A DNA stretch of 57,518 nucleotides from a virus (IMGVR_UViG_2861048470_000006), one strand, 5' to 3'. Positions 14,702 to 55,882 are shown, numbered from the stretch's first letter. Program-made: numbers and translations. Notes: generated by a model not told the origin, from the sequence alone.

Positions 14702-14769
14702 AGCGTCCTCACATTTGTAACCGGCTCATTTAAACCGTCTGGTCTGTTTCCTCCGGCTCTACAAAAATA

Positions 14770-15447: not shown

Positions 15448-15794
15448 TGATATCTCTCCCTGCAGGTTCGCGTATCTGGCTGGTTGCAGGTATCACCGAT
15501 ATGCGAAATGGCTTTAACGGCCTGGCATCAAAAGTTCAGAACGTCCTGAAGGATGACCCGTTCTCCGGACACCTGTTCATCTTCCGCGGACGCCGGGGTG
15601 ACCAGATAAAAGTGTTGTGGGCTGACAGTGACGGACTGTGCCTCTTCACCAAACGCCTGGAGCGGGGCCGCTTCGTCTGGCCAGTCACCCGTGACGGCAA
15701 GGTGCACCTTACTCCGGCTCAGTTATCCATGCTTCTTGAAGGTATCAACTGGAAGCACCCGAAACGAACGGAACGCGCTGGAATCCGCATATAA
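15447..15794 (+). CDS. IS66-family OrfB (TnpB-like)
   Basis: 115-aa ORF, ~75% identical by eye to the OrfB at 43595; conserved [16 protein letters not shown]. Confidence 0.85.
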   Translation: MISLPAGSRIWLVAGITDMRNGFNGLASKVQNVLKDDPFSGHLFIFRGRRGDQIKVLWADSDGLCLFTKRLERGRFVWPVTRDGKVHLTPAQLSMLLEGINWKHPKRTERAGIRI

Positions 15795-15813
15795 CCCGTT
15801 GTAAAGTGAGGAT

Positions 15814-17385
15814 ATGGACACCTCACTTGCTCATGAGAACGCCCGCCTGCGGGCACTGTTGCAGACGCAACAGGACACCATCCGCCAGATGGCTGAATAC
15901 AACCGCCTGCTCTCACAGCGGGTGGCGGCTTATGCTTCCGAAATCAACCGGCTGAAGGCGCTGGTTGCGAAACTGCAACGTATGCAGTTCGGTAAAAGCT
16001 CAGAAAAACTTCGTGCAAAAACCGAACGGCAGATACAGGAAGCACAGGAGCGAATCAGCGCACTTCAGGAAGAAATGGCGGAAACGCTGGGTGAGCAATA
16101 TGACCCGGTACTGCCATCCGCCCTGCGCCAGTCTTCAGCCCGTAAACCGTTACCGGCCTCACTTCCCCGTGAAACCCGGGTTATCCGGCCGGAAGAGGAA
16201 TGCTGTCCTGCCTGTGGTGGTGAACTCAGTTCTCTGGGATGTGATGTGTCAGAGCAACTGGAGCTTATCAGCAGCGCCTTTAAGGTTATCGAAACACAAC
16301 GTCCGAAACAGGCCTGTTGCCGGTGCGACCATATCGTGCAGGCACCAGTACCTTCAAAACCCATTGCACGCAGTTATGCCGGAGCGGGGCTTCTGGCCCA
16401 TGTTGTCACCGGGAAATATGCAGACCATCTGCCGTTATACCGCCAGTCAGAAATATACCGTCGTCAGGGAGTGGAGCTGAGCCGTGCCACACTGGGGCGC
16501 TGGACAGGTGCTGTTGCTGAACTGCTGGAGCCGCTGTATGACGTCCTGCGCCAGTATGTGCTGATGCCCGGTAAAGTCCATGCTGATGATATCCCCGTCC
16601 CGGTCCAGGAGCCGGGCAGCGGTAAAACCCGGACAGCCCGGCTGTGGGTCTACGTCCGTGATGACCGTAACGCCGGTTCACAGATGCCCCCGGCGGTCTG
16701 GTTCGCGTACAGTCCGGACCGGAAAGGTATCCATCCACAAAATCACCTGGCCGGTTACAGCGGTGTGCTTCAGGCCGATGCTTACGGTGGTTACCGGGCG
16801 TTATACGAATCCGGCAGAATAACGGAAGCCGCGTGTATGGCTCATGCCCGGAGAAAAATCCACGATGTGCATGCAAGAGCGCCCACCTACATCACCACGG
16901 AAGCCCTGCAGCGTATCGGTGAACTGTATGCCATCGAGGCAGAGGTCCGGGGCTGTTCAGCAGAACAGCGTCTGGCGGCAAGAAAAGCCAGAGCCGCGCC
17001 ACTGATGCAGTCACTGTATGACTGGATACAGCAACAGATGAAAACACTGTCGCGTCACTCAGATACGGCAAAAGCGTTCGCATACCTGCTGAAACAGTGG
17101 GATGCACTGAACGTGTACTGCAGTAATGGCTGGGTGGAAATCGACAACAACATCGCAGAGAACGCCTTACGGGGAGTGGCCGTAGGCCGGAAAAACTGGA
17201 TGTTCGCGGGTTCCGACAGCGGTGGTGAACATGCGGCGGTGTTGTACTCGCTGATCGGCACATGCCGTCTGAACAATGTGGAGCCAGAAAAGTGGCTGCG
17301 TTACGTCATTGAACATATCCAGGACTGGCCGGCAAACCGGGTACGCGATCTGTTGCCCTGGAAAGTTGATCTGAGCTCTCAGTAA
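15814..17385 (+). CDS. IS66-family transposase OrfC
   Basis: 523-aa ORF with N-terminal leucine zipper, CxxC...CxxC zinc-finger and DDE core, parallel to ORF at 43992. Confidence 0.9.
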
Positions 17386-17415
17386 ATATCAATACGGTTC
17401 TGACGAGTCGCTTAC

Positions 17416-30040: not shown

Positions 30041-30115
<75 letters not shown>

Positions 30116-30118
30116 ATA

Positions 30119-30194
<76 letters not shown>

Positions 30195-35719: not shown

Positions 35720-35875
35720 TTACTCCTCAGGTTCGTAAGCTGTGAAGACAGCGACCTCCGTCTGGCCGGTTCGGATTCGTACCTCGCAGAGGTCTTTCCT
35801 CGTTACCAGTGCCGTCACTATGACGGTTAAACAGATGACGATCAGGGCGATTAACATCGCCTTTTGCTGCTTCAT
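35720..35875 (-). CDS. hokD: Hok-family type I toxin
   Basis: 51-aa product MKQQKAMLIALIVICLTVIVTALVTRKDLCEVRIRTGQTEVAVFTAYEPEE matches Hok/RelF as recalled; track ORF extends upstream in frame. Confidence 0.9.
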   Translation of the reverse strand: MKQQKAMLIALIVICLTVIVTALVTRKDLCEVRIRTGQTEVAVFTAYEPEE

Positions 35876-36086
35876 AGCCTGCTTCTCCTTGCCTTTCGGC
35901 ACGTAAGAGGCTAACCTAGATTTGCCGTTCATAGATTGAGCCTCAGATTAATGTTAAGCGTCTTGCAGGACGCGTAATGTTAACTGGGGCTTTTCTCTAT
36001 CTGCCTTTGGTGTTCATGCCTGAGACAGATAGCCTCAAGCACCCGCAGCCATTCTACTTAACTCCCGTTACCTCGCCAATATAAAA

Positions 36087-36888: not shown

Positions 36889-37719
36889 TTGAAAGTTATT
36901 AGCTTAATCAATATGAAAGGTGGCGTTGGTAAGTCAACATTGGCTACCAATATTGCTAATCATCTTTCAGATAAACTTGGGCAAAAAATATTATTAATAG
37001 ATATCGACCCACAATTTAACGCAACGCAATGTGTAATGGATACAAGCAAATATGTTGCACATATGAAAAGCGGAGGCGATAGCATATGTGATATTTTTTA
37101 TAGTTCAAAAATTCGACTATCTACAATGACTGGTCCTTTAGTTAACACACCTAAAGAATTAGCCGATATAACACCAATTCAATTAAATGATAATTTTCAC
37201 ATTGTTCCCGGAAGCCTTGGGCTATATAAAATTGAAATGAAACCAGGAGAAGGGATAGAAAACAAGCTTAGACGCTTTCTTAAAATCCATGAAAATGACT
37301 ATGATTATGTCATAATTGATACCCCACCAACCCCATCAGTTTGGATGTCCAGCGCATTAATTGCATCTGATTATTACCTCATTCCAGCCAAACCCGATCC
37401 TCTTTCGATCACTGGTATCGATCTATTAGATAGCATTATAAATGAGAAGAGAGAAAATTTCGATCTTAAGATTGAATGTGCGGGCATAGTTTTTAATATG
37501 GTTGAAGGTAATAGTAATTTATATGAGGAAAGTCTTCGTTACTTCAATAATCAAAAACGTTGGCGTAATAAGATCTTTAAATCATATTTGAGCAAACGTA
37601 CTGAGTTGGCAAGAAATCAAACAAGAGGCTTATTTATTAACAATTTAACGGATGAGGATATGAAGTTTTCGCTGTCTAAAATTACTGACGAACTTCTCTC
37701 TAGAGTAGGTGACTTATGA
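36889..37719 (+). CDS. ParA/MinD/Soj-family P-loop ATPase
   Basis: 276-aa ORF, TTG start with AGGAG RBS; deviant Walker A KGGVGKST, DIDPQ and Walker B-like VIIDTPP motifs; very AT-rich. Confidence 0.8.
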   Translation: MKVISLINMKGGVGKSTLATNIANHLSDKLGQKILLIDIDPQFNATQCVMDTSKYVAHMKSGGDSICDIFYSSKIRLSTMTGPLVNTPKELADITPIQLNDNFHIVPGSLGLYKIEMKPGEGIENKLRRFLKIHENDYDYVIIDTPPTPSVWMSSALIASDYYLIPAKPDPLSITGIDLLDSIINEKRENFDLKIECAGIVFNMVEGNSNLYEESLRYFNNQKRWRNKIFKSYLSKRTELARNQTRGLFINNLTDEDMKFSLSKITDELLSRVGDL

Positions 37720-38222
37720 CTGACAAAAAAAATAACTCAAAAGAAATTAAGCAACTGTTAAACTTTTTAGAGGAGTTTTCCTTTATTTCAAAAAAATTAT
37801 CAAGAATCAACTTTATTGAATTACTTCAAGATAGTTATACTGATAATTTAGAAGTTAACGAAAGAAATTCAAAGTCCAAAAAAAATGATATTAAAGGTTT
37901 CCTTGTTGGGTATCTTCCGAGGATTTTATTAGACAAAGATCTCTTCCAAAAAAATAAAGATATAGATGATTTTGCACGCATGTTAGGTATCGAAATCAGC
38001 AGGCCTGAAAAAAGATCTAGAGAGGAAATGATCGGCATAATCGTGTGTGACGTTCACGAGAAAAACTCATCCGATTTAGGTAAGGCTTATAATATTATCA
38101 ATTCAATGTCAAATAACCCTCTAGTTTTGAGTAGAATAAAAGAGAGGAAGAACCTTTCTAGCGCTCAAAATGAGATATATGACTGGAATGAAGTTATAAA
38201 AGATATATTCAATAAGGACTAA
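37716..38222 (+). CDS. hypothetical protein, second gene of ParA-like operon
   Basis: 168-aa ORF overlapping ParA stop by 4 nt (ATGA); Lys/Asn-rich; no motif recognised. Confidence 0.5.
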   Translation: MTDKKNNSKEIKQLLNFLEEFSFISKKLSRINFIELLQDSYTDNLEVNERNSKSKKNDIKGFLVGYLPRILLDKDLFQKNKDIDDFARMLGIEISRPEKRSREEMIGIIVCDVHEKNSSDLGKAYNIINSMSNNPLVLSRIKERKNLSSAQNEIYDWNEVIKDIFNKD

Positions 38223-38224
38223 CA

Positions 38225-38920
38225 ATGTCGAGAGAAGTAAACAGCGATTTCACTGAGTTAGTTACTTATTTCTCTGAATATAAATTAAAAAATGTTTTCG
38301 AGAATATTAACTCAAGAGGGAAAATAAGCATGATACATAAGAGATATTATTCTTTTATGTGCCTTGTTTACTGTTTGTATCATTTCTCCAAGGAGAAAAT
38401 AGACGCCAACTCATTGGAGCGATTGCAAGAAGCTTCATCTGACCTTGGTACAGCTATGTTTATGGTTATAAATGGTGCATACAAACCAGCAAATCTAATG
38501 ATGCGAAGTTATATTGAAAATTCTTTAAAATCAATCGGTTGCTTACTAGATCCTTCAATACTTGAAGAAAAATCATTGTTTAAGGTAATTGAACAAACTG
38601 GGGAACATCCTGTCTTCAAAAAAAATCCTCTACTACATGAAACTTTAAAAGCTGAATACTCTTCGTTATGCAGTCACGTACATACAGCTACTGTAAAAGA
38701 AATGGCTCACATAAAAGCTTTAAATGTTTTTCCCGAAATAGACTTGGTTAAAATAGATAATATTTCGAAGGTGATTGATAAGGTGGTTAAGACTATGATA
38801 TCAACTATCATAAGAATTTTTCCTGATGTTTTCTTTTCCTTTGCACCTGAGTATCGAGAAAAAATCCTCCTTAGCTTAACCTCTGCACAACGAGCCTCAC
38901 TTCATTCCTTAAGTGATTAA
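38225..38920 (+). CDS. hypothetical protein, third gene of ParA-like operon
   Basis: 231-aa ORF 2 nt after previous stop; no motif recognised. Confidence 0.5.
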   Translation: MSREVNSDFTELVTYFSEYKLKNVFENINSRGKISMIHKRYYSFMCLVYCLYHFSKEKIDANSLERLQEASSDLGTAMFMVINGAYKPANLMMRSYIENSLKSIGCLLDPSILEEKSLFKVIEQTGEHPVFKKNPLLHETLKAEYSSLCSHVHTATVKEMAHIKALNVFPEIDLVKIDNISKVIDKVVKTMISTIIRIFPDVFFSFAPEYREKILLSLTSAQRASLHSLSD

Positions 38921-38933
38921 CTAACAAGTATGA

Positions 38934-38966
38934 CATAAAAACTATCCTATTGTGATAGTTTTTATG
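38934..38966 (+). terminator. 13-bp-stem hairpin directly after the three-gene operon (putative terminator)
   Basis: CATAAAAACTATC-ctattgt-GATAGTTTTTATG; coordinates anchored to stop at 38918-38920. Confidence 0.4.
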
Positions 38967-39116
38967 TTCATTAAGATGACTATATCAGGAATTATTGCCG
39001 AATTTTAATTTTCATATTGATTTTACTATCTCTCACCAACTCTTGTAAGTATCCTTCCGCCACAAGCGGACCATGTGCATTTAAATATCTGACCTAACGT
39101 GCCGTAACGCCGCAAT

Positions 39117-39140
39117 GTCCGCTTCTGGCACAAAGCAGAC
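39117..39140 (+). repeat. 24-bp imperfect direct repeat, copy A (GTCCGCTTCTGGCACAAAGCAGAC)
   Basis: 20/24 identity with copy B at 42790-42813; internal dyad symmetry GTCCGC...GCAGAC. Confidence 0.4.
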
Positions 39141-39202
39141 GCCCACTCTCACGCGAATGCTTTGCCCTTGACTTGCCAACAACCGTATCGCTTGCTCCGC
39201 AA

Positions 39203-40495
39203 CTATGGTTTTTTATTAGAATCTTCGCCACTAAATAAATTATAATAAATTGATTTTATTAGATATCTGTCAGAATCTATATGGTCAGCACGAGTAGCAT
39301 GCTCTAATGTTTCAAATGCTAGGGTTTGTGCGGCTTCAGCAAAAATTCCAGGCCAACCCTTACTCAGCATCGACAGTCCTTTAAGGATCCTTATCTGAAT
39401 TTCCCTCATACTGGCACCATCGCGCGCAACAGGTGAGAAAAAGTCTTCAAGTAGATCGTTATTCTGAAGTGGTGCAACATGTACAGAAGGATATTTCACT
39501 TCTATTTCATCAGATTTATTCTGCGCGTAAGCGGAAAGTATACGTACACCTCTGCCAATGACATCAATGGCGGTTCCAGGATCGTTCACTGCGGGGGAAA
39601 GGGCTCGGCAGGCTATTTCGGCCATGACGCTAAGACAAAATCGGGGGTCCTGAGCAAATGAACGTACATCCGAGACAATAATCGTCTCAAGTAAATCGGT
39701 GCTGATTGATGACTCCTGGCCCTGACTCAGGTACAAAACTGGCGTGGACGGATGTATGAAACTGCCCGGCTGCGCCACGAGGTATACATGACGGGGATCA
39801 TTGGTCAGCAGCTTGCTGAGTTTCACCATATCAACATATTCAACATAGCCAATCTTTTTCGGATAAACTGCAACCGTTCCTTTCGGCTGTTCATTGTTCT
39901 CAAGCCATGGATATCCGCCGAGACAGGGATTTCTTGCTCTCGCAATAAATGTTTCGATGGCCGCCTGTTCTACTTTTGCCGTTGTCTCACCAACCCTCCC
40001 CAGAGAGGTCAAATGCTGTATCCAGCGAAGCAATGTGATGAGGATTAAGGCAATGACAACCAGTGTTACAATGAATAAAATGACTCTCCCCCTTTCTCCA
40101 TAAGCTCCCATATTGAGGGCAATAATCCCTACCAGACTGAAGAGAAAAGAACCGATGAAGGTGGCCAGTACATTTTGTGTGGTGACGTCTTCAACAACTA
40201 AACGAGTAGCTCTGGGAGTCACATTAGTAGTGGCTGAACCGTAGGCTGTGACCATGATGCTCAGCGAAAATGTGGTCACTGCCAGCATACTCGATGCCAG
40301 TATGTTCAGAATGTTATCGACTGCTTCCGCACCAACCTTCACGGAAACCGACTCAGGTATCATTGATTTAAAAAGAATTGATAAAAGGGCCGTTATTATT
40401 GCGACAATTGCGAATAACGTTGCCCTGAACCATAGTTTTTTAAATGTCTGCTTCAGCATCCATTTCCAGCGTGAAATCATTCTGCATTCCCTCAT
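39203..40495 (-). CDS. DUF2254-like multi-TM membrane protein
   Basis: 430-aa ORF with N-terminal TM helices and large soluble C-terminal domain; family from recollection. Confidence 0.5.
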   Translation of the reverse strand: MRECRMISRWKWMLKQTFKKLWFRATLFAIVAIITALLSILFKSMIPESVSVKVGAEAVDNILNILASSMLAVTTFSLSIMVTAYGSATTNVTPRATRLVVEDVTTQNVLATFIGSFLFSLVGIIALNMGAYGERGRVILFIVTLVVIALILITLLRWIQHLTSLGRVGETTAKVEQAAIETFIARARNPCLGGYPWLENNEQPKGTVAVYPKKIGYVEYVDMVKLSKLLTNDPRHVYLVAQPGSFIHPSTPVLYLSQGQESSISTDLLETIIVSDVRSFAQDPRFCLSVMAEIACRALSPAVNDPGTAIDVIGRGVRILSAYAQNKSDEIEVKYPSVHVAPLQNNDLLEDFFSPVARDGASMREIQIRILKGLSMLSKGWPGIFAEAAQTLAFETLEHATRADHIDSDRYLIKSIYYNLFSGEDSNKKP

Positions 40496-40543
40496 ATTGC
40501 AGCCGGGATAAATAAATGCCGCCTCTGTGGCGGCATGTTGCTG

Positions 40544-42547
40544 TTAACGAACCAGATGCAGGAAGTGCAGGTGTTTTTCGTACTGGTCCAGTATGTCATT
40601 AATCAGCTGTTCCTGATTCCAGCCCATTACATCATAATTTTGGCCGCCCTCTTTGAGATAGACTTCAGCGCGATAATATCGATGTTGTTCACTCTGCTGC
40701 TCATCATTATCCAGCGCAGCGAGCGCGAAGGTCGGTGAGTTATACCCGCGAAGCCTCACTTCATATATATAATTCAGCTCGTTGCCCAAATCGACTTCAA
40801 GGCGAATACGATCCTCGGCGGCGTCACTGATGTGGCTTATCGTTCCCTGCTTGTTAAGTTCCTCCTGAACCAGCGTCATGGCGGGTTGGATAATGTCGTC
40901 CATAAAACGTTTCACAAGAGAGCGCTTCGGCAAATACGCGATATTGCGTAACCTTCTCTGCCAGGGAATTGGGTTACGTGCAGCCGTAGGAGCAATAGTC
41001 GCCATGCTAAGGCTTTCACGCTTGGTCAAATCCCGACGCAGGGCTTTTAACAGTCCGTATATGGATATTAATAAGATAACTGAGAAGGGCAATGCACTCG
41101 CTATCGTTACGGTTTGCAACGCACTCAGCCCCCCTGCGATCAGCAGGGCAATAGCAACAACGCCCATGAGCAATGCCCAGAAAATTCGCTGCCAGACGGG
41201 CGTGTTTGCCACCCCACCTGATGCCAGAGTATCCACAACCATTGCCCCCGAATCAGCAGACGTTACAAAGAAGACGATGACCATCGCCATTGCAATGAAT
41301 GACAGCACGGAAGAGAACGGGAAATGCTCCAGGAAATTAAACAGGGCAAGCGCAACATCCTGCTGAACGGTATTGGCGAGGTCAGTGGCGCCCTGGTTCA
41401 TGATGAGATAGATGGCGCTGTTTCCAAACACCGTCATCCACATGAGCGTAAAGCCGGCGGGAACAAACAACACGCCAGTCACGAACTCACGAATTGTCCT
41501 GCCGCGGGAAACGCGTGCAATGAACATACCTACAAACGGCGACCATGAAAGCCACCATCCCCAGTATAATAATGTCCAGCCCCCCAGCCAGTTGCTCGAC
41601 TTGGGTTCATACGCGTAAAGGTTGAACGTTTTACTCACCAGTTCCGACAGATAACCACCCGTATTTTCCACAAATGACTTCAGCAGAAGCACAGTGGGAC
41701 CCAGGCACAAGACCAGCGCCAGGAGCAACACCGCCAGGCCCAGATTAAGCTCAGACAGGATGCGTATTCCCTTGTCCAGGCCGGACACCACCGAAATCGT
41801 CGCTAACCCCGTGATGACCACGATCAAAATGACCTGTACCGTTTCATTGATGGGCACGCCGAAAAGATGGTTCAAACCGGCATTCACCTGCAATACACCG
41901 TAACCCAGCGATGTTGCAACGCCAAAGACAGTGCCTATCACGGCGAAGATATCAACCGCGTGGCCTATAGGCCCGTAAATGCGATCGCCGATAATGGGAT
42001 AGAGCGCAGAACGCAGCGTTAAAGGCAGACCGTGACGGTAACTGAAAAAGGCCAGAATCAGCGCCACGATGGCATAAATTGCCCATGCGTGCAGACCCCA
42101 GTGGAAGAACGTCAGGCGCATGGCTTCCTTCGCTGCCGCAACGGTCTCTGGAGTGCCGACAGGTGGCGAAAGATAATGCATCACAGGTTCGGCAACGCCA
42201 AAGAACATCAGGCCGATCCCCATCCCTGCCGAAAAAAGCATCGCGAACCAGGAGTGGTAGCTGAAATCAGGCTGCGCATGGTCTGGGCCCAGCTTTATAT
42301 CACCGTAACGTGAGAGTCCAAGGAACGTGACGCTCAGTAAAATCAGGGCCACAGCAAGTATGTAGAACCAGCTGGCATTCGTGAAGATTTGTTGCTGAAG
42401 TAGTTTAAAATTTTTGTCGGCGACATCCGGGAATACGGCGGCAAAGGCGACAAGAAGGAAAATTAGCAAAGCAGATGTAAAGAATACCGCTTTGTTAACC
42501 TGGCTTGTAGACTTCTTTGGGGTTGTATCATTTTCACTCATAATCAT
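40544..42547 (-). CDS. BCCT-family transporter (BetT/BetU-like choline/betaine transporter)
   Basis: 667-aa ORF; conserved BCCT segments (GDIKLGP, WTLLYWGWWLSWSPFVGMFIARVSRGRTIREF) parallel E. coli BetT as recalled. Confidence 0.85.
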   Translation of the reverse strand: MIMSENDTTPKKSTSQVNKAVFFTSALLIFLLVAFAAVFPDVADKNFKLLQQQIFTNASWFYILAVALILLSVTFLGLSRYGDIKLGPDHAQPDFSYHSWFAMLFSAGMGIGLMFFGVAEPVMHYLSPPVGTPETVAAAKEAMRLTFFHWGLHAWAIYAIVALILAFFSYRHGLPLTLRSALYPIIGDRIYGPIGHAVDIFAVIGTVFGVATSLGYGVLQVNAGLNHLFGVPINETVQVILIVVITGLATISVVSGLDKGIRILSELNLGLAVLLLALVLCLGPTVLLLKSFVENTGGYLSELVSKTFNLYAYEPKSSNWLGGWTLLYWGWWLSWSPFVGMFIARVSRGRTIREFVTGVLFVPAGFTLMWMTVFGNSAIYLIMNQGATDLANTVQQDVALALFNFLEHFPFSSVLSFIAMAMVIVFFVTSADSGAMVVDTLASGGVANTPVWQRIFWALLMGVVAIALLIAGGLSALQTVTIASALPFSVILLISIYGLLKALRRDLTKRESLSMATIAPTAARNPIPWQRRLRNIAYLPKRSLVKRFMDDIIQPAMTLVQEELNKQGTISHISDAAEDRIRLEVDLGNELNYIYEVRLRGYNSPTFALAALDNDEQQSEQHRYYRAEVYLKEGGQNYDVMGWNQEQLINDILDQYEKHLHFLHLVR

Positions 42548-42789
42548 TTATTCCATTAATTAAATCCGCACTGGATAGAAGGTACTACCTCTCACAGAGT
42601 AGCAAAGTTCAACTGGCTATGCGGGATTAATCGGAATGCATGGTGGAATGAGTGCCGATACAAATCATCCTATATTCTAAGGAGTTTTAAGTTACTCAGC
42701 CTGCCAATTACTGGGGCATTTAATTTGTATGATCTGTATCAAAGCTGGGATATAAGTTAAGTGAAGTATATTAGGCACGAATTACCAGC

Positions 42790-42813
42790 GTCTGCTCTTG
42801 GCACAAAGCGGAC
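42790..42813 (+). repeat. 24-bp imperfect direct repeat, copy B (GTCTGCTCTTGGCACAAAGCGGAC), abutting IS3
   Basis: see copy A; last 3 nt GAC are the IS3 target duplication. Confidence 0.4.
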
Positions 42814-42878
42814 TGATCTTACCCAGCAATAGTGGACACGCGGCTAAGTGAGTAAACTCTCAGTCAGAGGTGACTCAC

Positions 42879-43125
42879 ATGACAAAAACAGTATCAACCA
42901 GTAAAAAACCCCGTAAACAGCATTCGCCTGAATTTCGCAGTGAAGCCCTGAAGCTTGCTGAACGCATCGGTGTTACTGCCGCAGCCCGTGAACTCAGCCT
43001 GTATGAATCACAGCTCTACAACTGGCGCAGTAAACAGCAAAATCAGCAGACGTCTTCTGAACGTGAACTGGAGATGTCTACCGAGATTGCACGTCTCAAA
43101 CGCCAGCTGGCAGAACGGGATGAAG
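42879..43125 (+). pseudogene. insE: IS3 orfA (insE) 5' portion, interrupted by nested ISEc8-like element; remaining orfA codons resume at 45568
   Basis: MTKTVSTSKKPRKQHSPEFRSEALKLAERIGVTAAARELSLYESQLYNWRSKQQ... reads through to RDE then hits the IS end; continuation [17 protein letters not shown] found after the nested element. Confidence 0.85.
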
Positions 43126-43196
43126 GTAAGCGTACAGCCTGAACCGTCTGGTCAGAATCTGACAAATTAGACAAAGTGGTGTCCACCAAATAAGTA

Positions 43197-43598
43197 GTGG
43201 GAACCAAAGTGTCAGATATGCAGAAAAATGTGACTCCCGGCAGGCGAAAAGGCTGCCCTAATTATCCTCCCGAATTTAAACAGCAGCTCGTTGCTGCCTC
43301 CTGTGAACCCGGGATATCCATCTCAAAACTTGCTCTTGAAAATGGCATTAACGCCAATCTGTTGTTCAAATGGCGACAACAATGGCGCGAGGGAAAGCTG
43401 CTATTACCTTCTTCAGAGAGCCCCCAGCTACTTCCTGTGACTCTCGATGCAGCTGCCGAACAGCCAGAATCGCTCGCAGAGGACCCGGAAACCCTCAGTA
43501 TCAGCTGTGAGGTAACGTTCCGGCACGGGACGCTCCGCTTCAATGGCAATGTCAGCGAAAAGCTCCTGACTCTGCTGATACAGGAACTGAAGCGATGA
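43197..43598 (+). CDS. IS66-family OrfA
   Basis: 133-aa ORF. Confidence 0.85.
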   Translation: MGTKVSDMQKNVTPGRRKGCPNYPPEFKQQLVAASCEPGISISKLALENGINANLLFKWRQQWREGKLLLPSSESPQLLPVTLDAAAEQPESLAEDPETLSISCEVTFRHGTLRFNGNVSEKLLTLLIQELKR

Positions 43599-43942
43599 TC
43601 CCGTTACCTTCCGGGACCAAAATTTGGCTGGTTGCCGGTATCACCGATATGAGAAATGGCTTCAACGGCCTGGCTGCGAAAGTACAAACGGCGCTGAAAG
43701 ACGATCCCATGTCCGGCCATGTTTTCATTTTCCGGGGCCGCAGCGGCAGTCAGGTTAAACTGCTGTGGTCCACCGGTGACGGACTGTGCCTCCTGACCAA
43801 ACGGCTGGAGCGTGGGCGCTTCGCCTGGCCGTCAGCCCGTGATGGCAAAGTGTTCCTTACGCAGGCGCAGCTGGCGATGCTGCTGGAAGGTATCGACTGG
43901 CGACAGCCCAAGCGGTTGCTGACCTCCCTGACCATGCTGTAA
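43595..43942 (+). CDS. IS66-family OrfB (TnpB-like)
   Basis: 115-aa ORF, 4-nt overlap with orfA. Confidence 0.85.
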
Positions 43943-43991
43943 ATCTCTTTATCCTGGTTGTCACAGAATAAGCCCGGTAAAATACGGGCTT

Positions 43992-45530
43992 ATGAACGAC
44001 ATCTCTTCTGACGACATCTTCCTGCTGAAACAGCGCCTGGCCGAACAGGAAGCGCTGATCCACGCCCTGCAGGAAAAGCTGAGCAACCGGGAGCGCGAAA
44101 TAGACCATCTGCAGGCGCAGCTGGATAAACTCCGCCGGATGAACTTCGGCAGTCGTTCCGAAAAAGTCTCCCGCCGTATCGCACAAATGGAAGCCGATCT
44201 GAACCGGCTTCAGAAAGAGAGCGATACGCTGACTGGTAGGGTGTATGACCCGGCTGTACAGCGTCCGTTGCGTCAGACCCGCACCCGTAAGCCGTTCCCT
44301 GAATCACTACCCCGTGACGAAAAGCGACTGTTGCCTGCGGCGCCGTGCTGCCCGAACTGCGGCGGTTCACTGAGCTATCTGGGCGAGGATACCGCCGAAC
44401 AGCTGGAGTTGATGCGTAGTGCCTTCCGGGTTATCCGGACGGTACGGGAAAAACATGCCTGTACTCAGTGCGATGCCATCGTGCAGGCACCTGCACCTTC
44501 GCGGCCCATCGAGCGGGGTATCGCCGGACCGGGGCTGCTGGCCCGCGTGCTGACCTCGAAGTATGCAGAGCACACCCCGCTGTATCGCCAGTCAGAAATA
44601 TACGGCCGGCAAGGTGTGGAGCTGAGCCGTTCACTGCTGTCGGGCTGGGTGGATGCATGCTGCCGGCTGCTGTCTCCGCTGGAAGAGGCGCTTCATGGCT
44701 ATGTCATGACTGACGGCAAACTCCATGCCGATGATACCCCGGTCCAGGTACTGCTGCCGGGTAATAAGAAGACGAAGACCGGGCGGTTGTGGGCGTATGT
44801 TCGTGATGACCGCAATGCCGGGTCAGCGTTGGCACCTGCAGTGTGGTTCGCTTACAGCCCGGACAGAAAAGGCATCCATCCGCAGACTCATCTTGCCTGC
44901 TTCAGCGGTGTGCTGCAAGCGGATGCGTACGCCGGGTTCAACGAGCTGTATCGCAATGGTGGGATAACGGAAGCTGCCTGCTGGGCTCATGCCCGCCGAA
45001 AGATCCACGATGTGCACGTCCGCATCCCGTCAGCACTGACGGAAGAAGCCCTGGAGCAGATCGGTCAGTTGTACGCCATAGAGGCGGATATAAGGGGAAT
45101 GCCGGCAGAGCAGCGGCTTGCTGAACGTCAGCGAAAAACGAAACCGCTGTTGAAATCCCTGGAAAGCTGGTTGCGTGAAAAGATGAAAACCCTGTCGCGA
45201 CACTCAGAACTGGCGAAAGCGTTCGCATACGCCCTGAACCAGTGGCCGGCGCTGACGTACTATGCAGATGATGGCTGGGCTGAGGCGGACAATAACATCG
45301 CTGAAAATGCGTTGCGGATGGTCAGTCTGGGCCGCAAAAACTACCTGTTCTTCGGTTCGGATCATGGAGGAGAGCGGGGAGCGCTGCTGTACAGCCTGAT
45401 CGGGACGTGCAAACTGAACGGAGTGGAGCCAGAAAGCTACCTCCGCTATGTCCTTGACGTCATAGCCGACTGGTCGATAAACCGGGTCGGCGAACTGCTC
45501 CCCTGGCGCGTAGCACTGCCGACTGAATAA
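43992..45530 (+). CDS. IS66-family transposase OrfC
   Basis: 512-aa ORF. Confidence 0.9.
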
Positions 45531-45624
45531 CACATCCCCGTCAATACGGTTCTTGCTGCACGCTTACGGATGAAGAGCTGGCTATCCTCCAAAAGGCCGC
45601 GACATACTTCGCGAAGCGCCTGAA

Positions 45625-46491
45625 ATGAAGTATGTCTTTATTGAAAAACATCAGGCTGAGTTCAGCATCAAAGCAATGTGCCGCGTGCTCCGGGTGGCCC
45701 GCAGCGGCTGGTATACGTGGTGTCAGCGGCGGACAAGGATAAGCACGCGTCAGCAGTTCCGCCAACACTGCGACAGCGTTGTCCTCGCGGCTTTTACCCG
45801 GTCAAAACAGCGTTACGGTGCCCCACGCCTGACGGATGAACTGCGTGCTCAGGGTTACCCCTTTAACGTAAAAACCGTGGCGGCAAGCCTGCGCCGTCAG
45901 GGACTGAGGGCAAAGGCCTCCCGGAAGTTCAGCCCGGTCAGCTACCGCGCACACGGCCTGCCTGTGTCAGAAAATCTGTTGGAGCAGGATTTTTACGCCA
46001 GTGGCCCGAACCAGAAGTGGGCAGGAGACATCACGTACTTACGTACAGATGAAGGCTGGCTGTATCTGGCAGTGGTCATTGACCTGTGGTCACGTGCCGT
46101 TATTGGCTGGTCAATGTCGCCACGCATGACGGCGCAACTGGCCTGCGATGCCCTGCAGATGGCGCTGTGGCGGCGTAAGAGGCCCCGGAACGTTATCGTT
46201 CACACGGACCGTGGAGGCCAGTACTGTTCAGCAGATTATCAGGCGCAACTGAAGCGGCATAATCTGCGTGGAAGTATGAGCGCAAAAGGTTGCTGCTACG
46301 ATAATGCCTGCGTGGAAAGCTTCTTTCATTCGCTGAAAGTGGAATGTATCCATGGAGAACACTTTATCAGCCGGGAAATAATGCGGGCAACGGTGTTTAA
46401 TTATATCGAATGTGATTACAATCGGTGGCGGCGGCACAGTTGGTGTGGCGGCCTCAGTCCGGAACAATTTGAAAACAAGAACCTCGCTTAG
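45625..46491 (+). CDS. insF: IS3 transposase OrfB (DDE integrase-like catalytic domain)
   Basis: 288-aa ORF; normally expressed as OrfAB fusion by -1 frameshift. Confidence 0.9.
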
Positions 46492-46592
46492 GCCTGTGTC
46501 CATATTACGTGGGTAGGATCAGACAACCACGCTAGCTCTACCCTGTGCCACAAAATGTCAATTTGCATCTGAACTAATGCACTTTAATCTCG

Positions 46593-46763
46593 TCACTTCA
46601 ATAAATACCGAACATCCCCCTGATAAAACGACAATATGCGCTGCATAACTTCGCTCTTCCGGCACTCGCGACAGATTATGTTTAGGCGACTGTCGTAGCG
46701 ACGTATTTCTCCGTCAGGTAATGACCAGATAAGGTCCGGATCAACCACAACCGGTTTCTTCAG
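46593..46763 (-). pseudogene. 3' fragment of a ~140-aa phage replication-region gene split by IS100
   Basis: in-frame continuation (…KLKKPVVVDPDLIW…) of the 5' fragment once one copy of the duplication is removed. Confidence 0.7.
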
Positions 46764-46770
46764 TGTCAAT

Positions 46771-48974
<2,204 letters not shown>

Positions 48975-50823: not shown

Positions 50824-50885
50824 GTAACAATAGTTACATAGCAATGTCAACCATAGCAACATCACTTGGTAGTAACATTGGTTAC
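50824..50885. promoter_or_regulatory. two operator-like 14-bp sites GTAAC-N4-GTTAC in the cro/cI divergent intergenic region
   Basis: GTAACaataGTTAC (50824-50837) and GTAACattgGTTAC (50872-50885), the latter abutting the cI ATG. Confidence 0.45.
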
Positions 50886-51560
50886 ATGAAAAACACTATC
50901 AGCGAACGTATTCGGAATCGTCGAAAAGACGTTGGATTAACCCAACAGCAGGTTGCGAAAGCAATCGGCATATCTCGTGTATCCGTAACAAAATGGGAAA
51001 ATGGCTCTTCAAAACCTGACGGTGAGAATTTGCATCTACTGTCAAAATTGCTTTCCAAATCTCCTGAATGGATTCTTTATGGAAAGGACGGTCACGATAA
51101 AACCGATGATCTGCGTCTGAATCAGTATCCTTACATTAGTGACAACATCGCCCGGTTGCCCGTTTTAACGTGGGAACAGGCTGGTTATTGGGATATGAGT
51201 TGTCCAGTAACCGAGATTCCTGGCATTAAGAATTGGGTTGATGTCATGACAAAAACCGCTGAAAACTCTTTTTTATTGCATGTTGAGGGAGATGCGATGA
51301 CAAACTCTAACGGCCTCCCAACCATCCCCGATGGATCTACCGTGCTGATCACACCATGCTCAAGTAACATTAGAGAACTGGTGGGAAAAATAATCTTAAT
51401 CCAATTGGAAGGAACGCCAAACGTAACACTAAAAAAAGTTGCGATTGACGGACCAAACATCTATCTGTTGTCACTGAATCCGCTTTACAAACCCATCGAA
51501 CTGAATGGTGGTTACACCATTAAAGGTAAAGTTTCACAAATACATCAATACTTAGACTGA
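50886..51560 (+). CDS. CI-like repressor (N-terminal XRE HTH, C-terminal S24 LexA-like peptidase)
   Basis: start at MKNTISERIRN... (ATG 50886); HTH LTQQQVAKAIGISRVSVTKWE; C-terminal S24-like region. Confidence 0.8.
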   Translation: MKNTISERIRNRRKDVGLTQQQVAKAIGISRVSVTKWENGSSKPDGENLHLLSKLLSKSPEWILYGKDGHDKTDDLRLNQYPYISDNIARLPVLTWEQAGYWDMSCPVTEIPGIKNWVDVMTKTAENSFLLHVEGDAMTNSNGLPTIPDGSTVLITPCSSNIRELVGKIILIQLEGTPNVTLKKVAIDGPNIYLLSLNPLYKPIELNGGYTIKGKVSQIHQYLD

Positions 51561-51832
51561 GTCAGAACCCGCATTCATTGCGGGTTTTTCACGCTCTCAA
51601 ATGTACCTTTTGCAACATCGTATTGACTCGAAAGGTAACTCTTGTTACCTTAACGGCATACCAACCCACCCCGCCCCACAGAATGCAGGGCAATACTTCG
51701 AGTTACCAGGCAGTGGTCAGGGGTTAAGTAGCCAGCCCGAGGCGTAAGAACATGACGGCAGGGTTCAACTTTAATAACTATGCAGCAGGTTTTTGTTCCG
51801 CTACCCCGGCGTTAAGGGGAAATGAGGTCAGC

Positions 51833-51988
51833 ATGGATACTATCGATCTTGGCAACAGCGAATCTCTGGTATGTGGCGTGTTCCCCAACCAGGACGGTAC
51901 GTTCACCGCGATGACGTATACCAAAAGCAAAACGTTTAAAACCGAAAATGGTGCCCGTCGCTGGCTGGAAAGAAACTCAGGTGAGTGA
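51833..51988 (+). CDS. small protein YdfA-like
   Basis: 51-aa ORF from internal ATG with GAGG RBS; first gene of the dicB operon by position. Confidence 0.5.
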   Translation: MDTIDLGNSESLVCGVFPNQDGTFTAMTYTKSKTFKTENGARRWLERNSGE

Positions 51989-51989
51989 T

Positions 51990-52118
51990 ATGGATTTCGA
52001 CACAATCATGGAAAAGGCTTACGAAGAATACTTCGAAGGTCTTGCCGAAGGCGAAGAAGTTCTCAGCTTCAGTGAGTTTAAACAGGCGCTTTCCAGTTCG
52101 GCAAAATCTAACGGCTGA
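51990..52118 (+). CDS. small acidic protein YdfB-like (42 aa)
   Basis: hand-translated MDFDTIMEKAYEEYFEGLAEGEEVLSFSEFKQALSSSAKSNG; starts 2 nt after previous stop. Confidence 0.4.
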   Translation: MDFDTIMEKAYEEYFEGLAEGEEVLSFSEFKQALSSSAKSNG

Positions 52119-52147
52119 TAAGCGAAACAGCACCGCGAGGAATCAGT

Positions 52148-52366
52148 ATGCAGAAACGAGAACCCGTCATCATCGCGCCAGACTATACCGATGATGAACT
52201 TTATGAGTGGATGCACCAGAAAATTAATGCAGCGCAGGATCTGAAATGGGCCAATGAAGCCAGGGCTAAGCAGGCTGAAAATCTGTCCGCTCTGGAGCAG
52301 GATATCACCAATCTGGAAAAAGCAGCGGCATTAAGCATTGCCAGAATGATTACATACCCGCGTTAA
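52148..52366 (+). CDS. small protein YdfC-like
   Basis: 72-aa track ORF. Confidence 0.5.
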   Translation: MQKREPVIIAPDYTDDELYEWMHQKINAAQDLKWANEARAKQAENLSALEQDITNLEKAAALSIARMITYPR

Positions 52367-52706
52367 TAGCTAACCAACGAAGCTAAGGTTGGTAATTAAG
52401 GAGTTCTCCACGGGTGAGGTGGAGTGCGTGCGCCGGACACGGGTGAGCATCCGGCACTGACAGTTTACTGAAAGGATATTTCCCTGAAAAGTCAGACCAT
52501 AACGCGAAAGCGCACGGCGAGGTAGCTGGTTCATAGATAGCCTGTTGTTAAATTTTCGTCGACCGTGCGCTTCCGGTTGTGGCAATCCGCGAAATGGCGC
52601 GGCGGTAAGTATGGCGGGGCTATTCCTTCCCCGTTGAGGACACCGGGTTGTCAGGTTGACCATACGCTTAAGTGACAACCCCGCTGCAACGCCCTCTGTT
52701 ATCAAT

Positions 52707-52759
52707 TTTCTGGTGACGTTTGGCGGTATCAGTTTTACTCCGTGACTGCTCTGCCGCCC
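52707..52759 (+). ncRNA. dicF: DicF small RNA (ftsZ-targeting sRNA)
   Basis: 53-nt TTTCTGGTGACGTTTGGCGGTATCAGTTTTACTCCGTGACTGCTCTGCCGCCC matches DicF as recalled, followed by TTTTT; immediately upstream of dicB. Confidence 0.8.
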
Positions 52760-52933
52760 TTTTTAAAGTGAATTTTGTGATGTGGTGAATGCGGCTGAGC
52801 GCACGCGGAACAGTTAAAACCAAAAACAGTGTTATGGGTGGATTCTCTGTATCCGGCGTTAATTGTTAACTGGTTAACGTCACCTGGAGGCACCAGGCAC
52901 CGCATCACAAAATTCATTGTTGAGGACGCGATA

Positions 52934-53122
52934 ATGGAAACGTTATTACCAAACGTTAATACGTCTGAAGGTTGTTTTGAAATTGGTGTCACTATCAGTA
53001 ACCCTGTATTTACTGAAGATGCCATTAACAAGAGAAAACACGAACGGGAGTTATTAAATAAAATATGCATTGTTTCAATGCTGGCCCGTTTACGCCTGAT
53101 GCAAAAAGGACGCTGGCAATGA
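52934..53122 (+). CDS. dicB: cell division inhibitor DicB
   Basis: 62-aa product METLLPNVNTSEGCFEIGVTISNPVFTEDAINKRK... near-identical to DicB as recalled. Confidence 0.9.
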   Translation: METLLPNVNTSEGCFEIGVTISNPVFTEDAINKRKHERELLNKICIVSMLARLRLMQKGRWQ

Positions 53123-53322
53123 ATACTGCTGTTGCCCTCACTCTGACTGTTTTTCTTAATACTGGCGAACCTGTTGATGTGGTTACTGGTATATATGGTT
53201 CAATGAAAGAATGTATGGCTGCCGCAGCAGAACAGAAAATTCCTGGTAACTGTTATCCGGTCGAGAAAGTTATTCGCATGGATAATAACGAAATCCCGGC
53301 AGGATTAAAAACAGCGCCGTAA
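53119..53322 (+). CDS. small membrane protein YdfD-like
   Basis: 67-aa ORF from internal ATG overlapping dicB stop (ATGA). Confidence 0.55.
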   Translation: MNTAVALTLTVFLNTGEPVDVVTGIYGSMKECMAAAAEQKIPGNCYPVEKVIRMDNNEIPAGLKTAP

Positions 53323-53401
53323 TTAATATCCAGTTTCATTTTTACATGCCAGCAATGGCAGGGATTTGTTCACCCTTAAATCTGTAATGAGGTAAAACAA
53401 A

Positions 53402-55882
53402 ATGAGTAAAGTCTTTATTTGCGCCGCCATTCCGGACGAACAGGCAATAAAGGAAGAAGGTGCAGTTGCTGTAGCCACTGCCATTGAAGCCGGTGACGAA
53501 CGCCGCGCCCGTGCCAAATTTACCTGGCAATTCCTGGAGCAATATCCGGCTGCTCAGGACTGCGCTTATAAATTTCTTGTCTGCGAGGATAAACCCGGCA
53601 TGCCCCGCCCTGCTATCGACTCCTGGGATACCGAATATATGCAGGAAAACCGCTGGAATGAGGAAGGCGCTTCCTTTGTCCCGGTCGAAGCAGAATCCGA
53701 TCCGATGAACGTCAATTTTGACAAGCTGTCCCTTGAAGTACAGAACGCGGTCCTGGTTAAGTTCGGTACATGTGAAAACATCACCGTTGATATGGTGATT
53801 AGTGCACAGGAATTGTTGCAGGAGGACATGGCAACATTCGACGGGCATATCGTTGAGGCATTGATGAAAATGCCTGAAGTTAACGTCATGTATTCAGAAC
53901 TAAAGCTGTTCGCCATCGGGTGGGTTAAACATAAATGTAAGCCGGGCGCAAAATGGCCTGAGATCCAGACAGAATTACGCACCTGGAAAAAACGTCGCGA
54001 AGCCGAACGCAAAGAAACCGGGAAATACACGTCTGTTGTTGATCTCGCCTACGCCAGAGTCAACCGGCAGAACACTGAAAACTCAACAGGAAAAATCCAC
54101 CCTGTCACTGCCGCCATTCGTCGCGAATACAAGCAGACATGGAAAACACTGGATGATGAACTGGCCTACGCTCTCTGGCCTGGTGATGTGGATGCCGGAA
54201 ACATTGACGGCAGCATCCATCGCTGGGCAAAAAATGAAGTTATCGACAACGACCGCGAAGACTGGAAGCGTATCTCGGCATCAATGCGCAAACAGCCTGA
54301 TGCCCTTCGCTACGACCGCCAGACTATTTTTGGCCTTGTCCGTGAACGTCCGATCGACATTCACAAAGACCCTGTGGCACTGAACAAATACATTACTGAA
54401 TACCTGACTACAAAGGGCGTGTTTGAAGATGAAGGAACAAATCAGAGCGCAACTGATACTCTCTCGTCGCCAGTACCAGAAACTGATGCAGTGGAAACGG
54501 CAATTCCGGACAACGAAAAAACCGAATGCAAAGTGGAAGTCGAACCATCTGTAGAGCGTGAGGGGCCGTTCTACTTCCTCTTCACCGACAAGGATGGCGA
54601 AAAATACGGTCGCGCAAACAAACTTTCTGGTCTGGATAAGGCACTGGCTGCCGGGGCTACTGAAATCACGAAAGAAGAATATTTCGCCCGCAAAAACGGT
54701 ACATACTCAGGTTCACAACAAAATACTGGTGCATCTGACACGACCGCACAACCAGGGCCGGTAAAAGTTACCGCTGACGAAGTAAACAAAATTATGCAGG
54801 CAGCCAATATCAGCCAGCCTGACGCCGATAAGTTGCTTGCTGCCTCTCGCGGAGAATTTGTTGCAGGGATTAGCGACCCGAATGATCCGAAATGGGTTAA
54901 GGGGATCCAGACCCGCGATTCTGTAAACCAGAACCAGCATGAATCGGAACGGAACTACCAAAAAGCGGAACAAAACAGCCCAAATGCGTTACAAAACGAG
55001 CCAGAAACGAAACAGCCTGAACCAGTGGCGCAACAGGAACCGGAAAAGATCTGCACCGCCTGCGGTCAGAGCGGTGGCGGCAACTGCCCTGAATGTGGTG
55101 CGGTGATGGGCGACGCAACATACCAGGAAACATTCGATGACAAGAACCAGGTTGAAGTTCAGGAAGACGATTCGGAGAAAATGGAAGGCGCTGAACATCC
55201 ACACAAGGAGAATGCTGGCAGCGCTCAGGACCACGCCAGCGATAGTGAAACTGGCGAGACGGCAGATTCCTTAATTTCGGTGAACGGTCATCACGTTATC
55301 ACATCCACCAGCAGAGTGTGGTACCACCTGATGATCGACCTTGAAACAATGGGAACCAACACCAATGCGCCCATCGTGGTTATTGGTGCGGTTTTCTTCG
55401 ACCCACAAACAGGGGAAATCGGGCCAGTATTTTATATCGTTATCAGTCTGACTGACGCAATGAATACAGGGGCTGTTCCTGACGGTGGAACCATCGAATG
55501 GTGGCTGAAGCAGTCCAGTGAAGCCAGAGCTGCCATTTTAACAGACCAGGTAAAACTGAAGGATGCCCTTTCGCAGTTTCGGGAGTTCATCAACGAATAC
55601 TCAGATGAAAAATTCGTTCAGGTATGGGGTAATGGTGCGACTTTCGATAACGCAATTTTGCGCACCTCATACGAACGTCTGGACATCCCCTGCCCGTGGC
55701 GCTACCACAACGATCGCGATGTACGCACAATCGTTGAGCTGGGAAAAACAATCGACTTTGATGCCAGAACCGTTATTCCATTCGAAGGCGTGCGCCACAA
55801 TGCACTGGATGACGCCCGTCACCAGGCAAAATACGTTACAGCTACGATACAAAAACTGATCCCGAGTCAGGCTGATTTTTAA
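53402..55882 (+). CDS. large phage exonuclease-domain protein (C-terminal DEDDh 3'-5' exonuclease fold; internal CxxC...CxxC zinc ribbon)
   Basis: 826-aa ORF; Exo motifs MIDLETMG, WGNGATFD, HNALDDARHQ; CTACGQSGGGNCPECG. Confidence 0.7.
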   Translation: MSKVFICAAIPDEQAIKEEGAVAVATAIEAGDERRARAKFTWQFLEQYPAAQDCAYKFLVCEDKPGMPRPAIDSWDTEYMQENRWNEEGASFVPVEAESDPMNVNFDKLSLEVQNAVLVKFGTCENITVDMVISAQELLQEDMATFDGHIVEALMKMPEVNVMYSELKLFAIGWVKHKCKPGAKWPEIQTELRTWKKRREAERKETGKYTSVVDLAYARVNRQNTENSTGKIHPVTAAIRREYKQTWKTLDDELAYALWPGDVDAGNIDGSIHRWAKNEVIDNDREDWKRISASMRKQPDALRYDRQTIFGLVRERPIDIHKDPVALNKYITEYLTTKGVFEDEGTNQSATDTLSSPVPETDAVETAIPDNEKTECKVEVEPSVEREGPFYFLFTDKDGEKYGRANKLSGLDKALAAGATEITKEEYFARKNGTYSGSQQNTGASDTTAQPGPVKVTADEVNKIMQAANISQPDADKLLAASRGEFVAGISDPNDPKWVKGIQTRDSVNQNQHESERNYQKAEQNSPNALQNEPETKQPEPVAQQEPEKICTACGQSGGGNCPECGAVMGDATYQETFDDKNQVEVQEDDSEKMEGAEHPHKENAGSAQDHASDSETGETADSLISVNGHHVITSTSRVWYHLMIDLETMGTNTNAPIVVIGAVFFDPQTGEIGPVFYIVISLTDAMNTGAVPDGGTIEWWLKQSSEARAAILTDQVKLKDALSQFREFINEYSDEKFVQVWGNGATFDNAILRTSYERLDIPCPWRYHNDRDVRTIVELGKTIDFDARTVIPFEGVRHNALDDARHQAKYVTATIQKLIPSQADF

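Follow-up and report, generated by a model that had tools for sequence, protein, structure and literature searches.

A canonical dicBF operon with an unchanged DicF small RNA in a Qin-family lambdoid prophage

The segment at positions 51833-53322 (plus strand) of the window, i.e., the whole 57,518-nt stretch of viral DNA that was analyzed (IMGVR_UViG_2861048470_000006), is almost certainly the canonical dicBF operon, ydfA-ydfB-ydfC-dicF-dicB-ydfD, which serves a Qin-family lambdoid prophage as its leftward early (pL-type) operon. Its products DicF and DicB each inhibit the division of the bacterial cell. As a bacterial regulatory RNA, DicF was one of the first to be described, and the operon found here is already known and ordinary: among the 5426 complete E. 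coli genomes searched, 4766 contain matches to the operon query, which marks the finding as real and, at the same time, as already known. Judged by its sequence, the operon is complete and encodes a DicF identical to the K-12 RNA; strain-level statements have this basis throughout, and all steps that involve RNases, Hfq or target RNAs are carried over from K-12. What is added is confined to two points, the placement of the processing sites on two helices and a repressor that differs from that of K-12. An earlier note on this DNA, made from the sequence alone, had proposed the same series of genes, and all of the parts that it named were found on one strand and in the K-12 order, with the start of ydfA at 51833 and the stop of ydfD at 53322 where it had placed them. 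Four features described below go beyond that note: the putative second RNase III helix between dicF and dicB, the predicted promoter with its operator, the LexA-type repressor, and the genes that follow downstream in the same direction.

An Rfam scan of the 57,518 nt identified a single copy of DicF (RF00039) at 52708-52759 on the plus strand, with a score of 76.7 bits (E 3.3e-15; gathering score 48 bits) and an alignment that covers model positions 1-52 of 52. The RNA itself extends over 53 nt (52707-52759, plus strand) and consists of a single-stranded 5' part followed by the terminator hairpin GGCGGUA...UGCCGCC, for which a folding energy of -15.9 kcal/mol was calculated. Directly 3' of the hairpin follow a C and the run TTTTT, the latter at 52760-52764, so that the match to DicF proposed in the earlier note and the T-run behind it were both borne out. 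Relative to RF00039, the copy is a full-length match with the consensus terminator hairpin and shows no difference from the majority sequence variant, which was found in 71 of the 131 DicF loci obtained from genome and viral collections. Alignment to the DicF of the K-12-type Qin locus (strain FS1576, whose scores equal those of the MG1655 and TG1 hits) revealed identity at 53 of 53 positions. A failing Rfam score and deviations at the ftsZ-pairing positions had been named beforehand as possible refutations; the segment instead scored well above the gathering threshold, and zero differences were observed at these positions. In K-12, the 3' region of DicF pairs with ftsZ, while the 5' region pairs with xylR and pykA (PMC5069750). 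As no DicF position differs from K-12, the ftsZ-pairing residues are unchanged, and the residues that pair with xylR and pykA are likewise those of the K-12 RNA. The RNAduplex energy for DicF and the K-12 ftsZ leader, -38.5 kcal/mol, does not separate from that of shuffled sequences (-32.0 +/- 4.3 kcal/mol).

DicF is located within the ydfABC-dicF-dicB operon of a lambdoid prophage, and the surrounding protein genes, all on the plus strand, are those of the K-12 operon. The first gene, ydfA (51833-51988), codes for 51 amino acids, matches Pfam DUF1391 with 96.2 bits (cut-off 27.3) and shares 49 of 51 residues with the K-12-type protein. It is followed by ydfB (51990-52118; 42 amino acids), which starts one base before the position 51991 given in the earlier note; the DNA of this gene is almost identical to K-12-type Qin and it is called ydfB in a RefSeq locus of 100% identity, while no Pfam or NCBIfam model matched its product. 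The 72-residue product of ydfC (52148-52366), which is annotated under this name in the same RefSeq locus, agrees with K-12-type YdfC at 71 of 72 residues. Downstream of dicF, the gene for the cell-division inhibitor DicB (52934-53122; 62 amino acids) begins with an ATG at 52934, the position expected from the earlier reading, and its product is recognized by Pfam DicB (PF05358; 132.4 bits, cut-off 27) as well as by NCBIfam NF049927 (135.8 bits, cut-off 100), over residues 1-62 of 62; 57 of the 62 residues are identical to K-12-type DicB. The last gene (53119-53322; 67 amino acids; Pfam DUF1482, 70.2 bits, cut-off 25) is a diverged ydfD-like allele whose product shares only 42 of 67 residues with K-12-type YdfD, and comparison with other DicF loci identifies ydfD as the least conserved part of the locus (53-85% DNA identity). 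In K-12, YdfD is a lysis protein that inhibits IspG (PMC8835842). The DUF1482 profile and the overlap with dicB suggest that the product encoded here belongs to the YdfD lysis proteins, with lysis and IspG binding as putative activities. The small membrane protein that had been described as overlapping the dicB stop codon does overlap it, the ydfD-like start codon being part of an ATGA, but the membrane assignment is not supported by the N-terminal 15-residue hydropathy, which is only 1.2.

The spacer between ydfC and dicF (52367-52706) is 340 nt in length and thus as large as had been noted, but it is GC-rich only in relative terms, its G+C content being 53.5% compared with 51.4% for the whole window and 38-49% for the flanking small genes. 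Comparison with 130 other DicF loci divides the spacer into two conservation zones with a boundary at ~52497. The promoter-proximal zone (52367-52496, plus strand; 130 nt), which corresponds to the ydfC 3' UTR, forms a string of small hairpins and is linked to ydfC; it was found in about 52-74% of DicF loci, and ydfC itself is present in only about 52% of the 130 other loci. One of its hairpins, at ~52372-52393, exhibits a compensatory change from C-G to U-A. In two loci, a deletion has removed 29 nt between CACGGGTGAG direct repeats, which indicates that this part is dispensable. Insertions or deletions of 1 nt, e.g., CCCC versus CCCCC, are common among the spacer variants.

The promoter-distal zone belongs to a block (52497-52925) that is present in 97-100% of the 130 other DicF loci and is kept together at essentially all DicF loci of E. 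coli and Shigella. With an identity of ~95-99.8%, which drops to 77% only at the apex of a hairpin, this block exceeds both ydfD (53-85%) and the 3' half of dicB (76-90%) in conservation. The hairpin in question (52497-52582, plus strand) is an imperfect structure of ~24 stem pairs (MFE -43 kcal/mol, z -3.2) whose lower stem was formed in every distinct variant folded; its apex is variable, with 21 apical variants in the alignment and ~35 nt swapped for unrelated sequence between lineages. In K-12, a 190-nt precursor of DicF receives its 5' end through RNase III (PMC10448788), and RNase E then produces the 53-nt DicF from it (PMC10448788, PMC5069750). The RNase III site was reported as '813/814' in the authors' own numbering (PMC10448788), and the fragment sizes in the literature, 190 and 72 nt, served to place the RNase III sites on the window. 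If the 3' terminus of DicF is taken as the last of the 190 nt, the precursor would begin at position 52570, which is located in the 3' arm of the hairpin, pairs with 52510 in the lower stem according to the pair list, and is part of the sequence with which Fig. S1 of PMC10448788 illustrates the mapped RNase III site. These coincidences point to the hairpin at 52497-52582 as the probable RNase III substrate that would yield the precursor 5' end at ~52570.

The remainder of the precursor upstream of DicF (52583-52706, plus strand) is present in 99% of the 130 loci with 95-99.8% identity and ends at a putative RNase E-type site, AA↓UUU (the arrow marks the cut), in the context ...AUCAA↓UUUUCUGG. 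RNase E prefers A/U-rich sites of the form RN↓WUU, and the DicF 5' end would, by our own reading, fit this preference. The whole 190-nt precursor does not adopt a significantly stable fold (z -1.8). A helix covariation test on 95 distinct sequences, which is weakly powered given that the homologues are ~95-99% identical, counted 21 pairs changed on both sides compared with 7.5 in shuffles, and its weakly positive overall score was matched by 18 of 500 shuffles. The suggestion that the spacer contains the structures for DicF processing is therefore retained for its promoter-distal 210 nt, where the hairpin carries the cut position of the 190-nt precursor, and is narrowed with respect to the proximal 130 nt and their small hairpins.

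The second non-coding segment of the conserved block is the dicF-dicB spacer, i.e., the dicB leader (52760-52933, plus strand; 174 nt), which is composed of the U-tract at 52760-52764 and a multi-branch domain. It is closed by a 28-bp helix of 52760-52787 with 52898-52926, whose first strand opens with the terminator U-run and whose second strand ends in the dicB Shine-Dalgarno sequence, GAGGA at 52922-52926, which is thereby placed inside the helix. With an MFE of -67.5 kcal/mol and a z-score of -4.85, equaled by none of 200 shuffles, this spacer forms the strongest structure in the locus, and two variable positions of the helix keep their pairing (C-G/U-G/U-A and G-C/G-U). For the 72-nt form of DicF, it was reported that the 3' end is generated by RNase III in read-through transcripts (PMC5069750, PMC9438474). 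A length of 72 nt from 52707 ends at 52778, in the middle of the helix. The helix thus presents itself as a candidate second RNase III substrate that would fit the published fragment sizes; it might also mask the dicB Shine-Dalgarno sequence until it is cut, in which case cleavage would free the ribosome-binding site. In lambda, the pL-operon leader of the N gene is likewise processed by RNase III. Both leaders share a long pL-leader helix beside the start of a small early gene, and this helix may plausibly act as a substrate of RNase III and hide the ribosome-binding site, but the dicB leader bears no sequence relation to that of N, and its effect on dicB translation is one that we infer only.

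Transferred from published K-12 work, the course of events would be as follows. A polycistronic transcript would begin upstream of ydfA and be cut by RNase III at the hairpin of the ydfC-dicF spacer, giving rise to the 190-nt precursor, after which RNase E would cut at the DicF 5' end. The 53-nt form would end at the intrinsic terminator, and the 72-nt form would obtain its 3' end from the downstream RNase III cut in transcripts that read through. Together with Hfq, DicF would then pair with the ribosome-binding site of ftsZ as well as with xylR, pykA and manX, DicB would bind MinC and block Z-ring formation, and YdfD would be expected to cause lysis unless division is blocked. The assignment of the published processing sites to two conserved helices offers concrete positions that can be mutated to alter the balance between DicF and DicB output.

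Besides its role as a leader, the dicF-dicB spacer (~52757-52966) could represent a separate sRNA of the STnc100/PasD family, which would be freed by two RNase III cuts in the closing helix; this reading is considered unlikely. It draws on a full-model alignment to STnc100 (RF02076) with 38.7 bits (E 2e-6 in a search of 1.9 kb), on scores of 34.4-37.9 bits for the same region in three other loci, on a UCACCUGGAGGCACCAGGCACC block that matches the STnc100 consensus with one compensatory pair, and on the strong structure of the domain (z -4.85). In addition, STnc100 and PasD were described as related prophage sRNAs in a recent preprint (10.64898/2026.05.13.724894). However, 38.7 bits fall below the gathering threshold of 47, the three other hits are homologous copies and hence not independent, neither dicF nor dicB is mentioned in the preprint (10.64898/2026.05.13.724894), and no RNA of that size from the dicF-dicB spacer is reported in the DicF literature examined. 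The match is a resemblance and not family membership: the spacer aligns to the entire STnc100 model and shares the CCNGGAGGCACCNGG hairpin, but the element in the window is an operon-internal leader located directly 5' of dicB. In a wider sense, it is an outside chance that the ~430-nt non-coding block at 52497-52925 gives rise to further functional RNAs besides DicF. The main candidate would be an STnc100/PasD-like RNA cut from the dicF-dicB spacer, followed by the 137-nt 5' by-product (52570-52706), whose conservation equals that of DicF; moreover, dicB translation may be switched on when the 28-bp helix is cut.

Within the canonical dicBF operon as the pL operon of this prophage, control of transcription appears to differ from that known for K-12. 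Upstream of ydfA, a gene for a CI-type repressor (50844-51560, plus strand; 238 amino acids) was identified by two Pfam domains in its product, HTH_3 with 60 bits and Peptidase_S24 with 61 bits; a P22_Cro-type gene is oriented divergently to it, and the RefSeq name at the identical locus is 'LexA family protein'. A pL-type promoter is predicted at 51623-51651 (plus strand; TTGACT, 17 nt, TACCTT), and an operator, GTAACTCTTGTTAC, is situated over it at 51635-51648 (plus strand). The exact motif GTAAC-N4-GTTAC occurs three times in the 57.5 kb, twice between cro and cI (50824 and 50872) and once at 51635, and is confined in all three cases to the immunity region; allowing for up to one mismatch, six matches were found compared with 0.88 expected. 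The predicted pL promoter was not called by the promoter scan and agrees with the consensus at 8 of 12 positions, but its architecture mirrors the layout of the divergent TTGACA-18-TACCAT, which the scan did find. Similarity to DicF loci of other immunity types starts at ~51650-51675, right after the -10 element, which is the expected end of a lambdoid immunity module. Taken together, TTGACT-17-TACCTT is probably the pL promoter, and the combination of HTH and S24 domains with apparently cognate operators at a promoter is that of a putative cleavable repressor.

In K-12, DicA represses the dicBF operon. In the window, the CI-type protein is predicted to take the place of K-12 Qin DicA as the repressor of the operon, and the two differ considerably, the former being a 238-aa LexA-type CI that has an S24 domain and operators of its own, and the latter a protein of 135 aa. 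As a LexA-type (S24) CI is combined with an operator over pL, the operon should be SOS-induced along with the prophage. The repressor would thus act via this operator, with SOS-linked induction replacing the control via DicA and Rem that operates in K-12.

Alignment to the K-12 Qin dicF/dicB region, which had been put forward as a check, resulted in 94.4% identity over the operon and 53 of 53 nt in DicF. The operon has in common with that of K-12-type Qin its genes, their order and strand, the 340-nt ydfC-dicF and 174-nt dicF-dicB spacers, and the chromosomal site beside rspB; the prophage is a Qin-family lambdoid element at the Qin site, between ydfJ' and rspB. Homology to K-12 Qin starts only at 51795, and the YdfD allele has diverged (42/67). 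Exonuclease, xis and int are intact, whereas they are cut by IS2 in K-12. The exonuclease gene (53402-55882, plus strand; 826 aa; Pfam Rv2179c-like, 228 bits, residues 642-814) corresponds, at full length, to the ydfE region that is truncated in K-12. With its LexA-type repressor and the intact downstream exonuclease, xis and int, this copy shows the K-12 remnant before decay. The prophage carries IS66-, IS3- and IS21-type insertions.

It is highly improbable that the copy is a silent relic without function in a prophage that is being degraded. These insertions and the location at the site of the cryptic Qin element would be in line with such a state, but the six genes are undamaged, as are the two processing helices, DicF does not differ from the active K-12 RNA, and a repressor, an operator and a predicted promoter are present. 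Moreover, the far more degraded K-12 Qin still expresses DicF in stationary phase (PMC10448788).

Slightly less credible still is the idea that the ydfC-dicF spacer or the operon leader acts as a processive antitermination RNA, HK022 put-like or nut-like, that allows transcription to pass the DicF terminator to dicB, exonuclease, xis and int. An intrinsic terminator midway in a long co-directional early operon, a spacer rich in hairpins and the lack of an evident N-like protein among YdfA, YdfB and YdfC would agree with it. However, HK022 putL (from NC_002166), a single put sequence that was compared by sequence and checked against the residue numbers in PMC9378689, gave only chance matches of 8-11 nt in the window (best E >= 0.7), and a permissive Rfam scan of 51500-53400 detected no structured-RNA family besides DicF and the sub-threshold STnc100. 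The promoter-proximal spacer is, furthermore, absent from about half of the DicF loci and has lost one hairpin in two of them, and partial read-through alone accounts for the published 53-nt and longer species. A Trp_leader match at 51500-51593 in the same permissive scan turned out to be the cI terminator hairpin. Least probable of all, and practically dismissed, is a protein-coding function of the 340-nt spacer, since the uninterrupted 111-codon ORF that runs across the entire spacer on the minus strand (52370-52705) starts with TTG, is preceded by no promoter-like site on that strand in the promoter scan, and is not conserved among 98 distinct spacer variants, in which the maximum length without a stop varies between 56 and 113 codons, full length is reached in only ~1/3 and frameshifting 1-nt indels are common.

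The canonical dicBF operon is widely distributed. At least 80% of the operon query was recovered in 2132 E. coli genomes, matches occur at a median of 2 places per genome and at 10 at the most, and 60 phage records match the query. For the Salmonella DicF locus, likeness was limited to the DicF core, and its flanks were unusable for comparison. The chromosome of E. coli strain 504237 carries the region 51560-53400 with 100% identity, and the RefSeq genes there read ydfA(DUF1391)-ydfB-ydfC-dicB-DUF1482, followed by exonuclease, xis, int and rspB. Among temperate phages that carry dicF, Escherichia phage Tritos (OV696610), mEp460 and vB_EcoS-689R5 show 94-95% identity over the operon; their repressor (immunity) modules differ from that of the window, and they are sequenced phage genomes, whereas the window copy resides in a prophage with IS insertions. 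The RefSeq annotation of the identical strain 504237 locus omits the dicF RNA gene, which gives the present assignment its value for annotation, and the Tritos record annotates DicF as a misc_RNA between the same genes, again followed by exonuclease, xis and int.

The spacer between ydfC and dicF contains two sites at which hairpin tips have been exchanged for unrelated sequence among lineages. One is the apex (52520-52555) of the hairpin at 52497-52582, the putative RNase III substrate, for which 21 variants were found; the other is situated at 52617-52645. The stems and flanks around the exchanged tips have kept an identity of ~92-99%. At the second site, the hairpin GGGGCUAUUCCUUCCCC has given way to another hairpin (CUGGGG...CUCCAG) in five loci. 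In addition, two of the DicF-carrying loci fetched for comparison (L089 and L107) have lost 29 nt, equivalent to window positions 52409-52437, between direct repeats of CACGGGTGAG. The ydfC 3' UTR has a pair of similar hairpins, one of which is removed by this deletion.

The spacer between dicF and dicB, the dicB leader, was aligned end to end with the Rfam family STnc100 (RF02076) over 52757-52966, at a score of 38.7 bits that does not reach the threshold of 47. The CCNGGAGGCACCNGG hairpin is common to this spacer and STnc100 and includes one compensatory pair. STnc100 has been linked to the PasD prophage sRNAs in a 2026 preprint (10.64898/2026.05.13.724894), which mentions neither dicF nor dicB.

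A DicF homologue was also identified in Salmonella enterica (locus L006, 3644-3695; 60.6 bits). Compared with E. coli, the hairpin core is kept, whereas the 11 nt at the 5' end differ and the flanks are unrelated; the targets of its 5' seed and its processing may be unlike those in E. coli. In L001, the RefSeq locus identical to the window operon, no dicF RNA gene is annotated between ydfC and dicB (NZ_CP025862.1, 2149992-2150558), even though the sequence scores well over the Rfam threshold as DicF.

Downstream of the operon, an “exonuclease” gene of 826 aa (53402-55882) represents the full-length form of the gene that is truncated by IS2 in the ydfE region of K-12. The middle region of the protein bears only a weak resemblance to RecE/exonuclease VIII (275 bits; cut-off, 1269), and the C-terminal domain belongs to the Rv2179c-like 3'-5' exoribonuclease (DEDD) type (228 bits).

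Upstream, a strong terminator-like hairpin, AACCCGCAUUCAUUGCGGGUUUUU (51565-51593), directly follows the stop codon of the CI-type repressor gene cI and is the source of a weak Rfam match to Trp_leader, which was rejected as spurious. Other RNA genes of the prophage include a sok antisense RNA on the minus strand (within 35870-36044; RF01794, 110 bits). In E. coli strain 504237, whose prophage is near-identical, a hokD toxin gene is annotated beside the equivalent position. Two adjacent genes, for tRNA-Gly(UCC) and tRNA-Thr(UGU) (30041-30194, minus strand), are found in the vicinity of the lysis genes, with a DNA methyltransferase gene downstream of them.

Cargo genes coding for ParA-family, DUF2254 and BCCT-family transporter proteins are placed between the late and early regions (36900-42550), their identities being carried over from the annotation of the near-identical prophage by correspondence with L135 40365-46017. 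The same annotation puts the serum survival gene iss close to the lysis cassette. Insertion elements differ from strain 504237 within 14717-17415 and 42704-48717: the same IS66-family element lies in the tail-gene region of the window but inside the terminase large-subunit gene of that strain, the IS3/IS21 region differs in its arrangement, and nothing in that strain corresponds to 43125-45568. Therefore, the window derives from a different, closely related strain.
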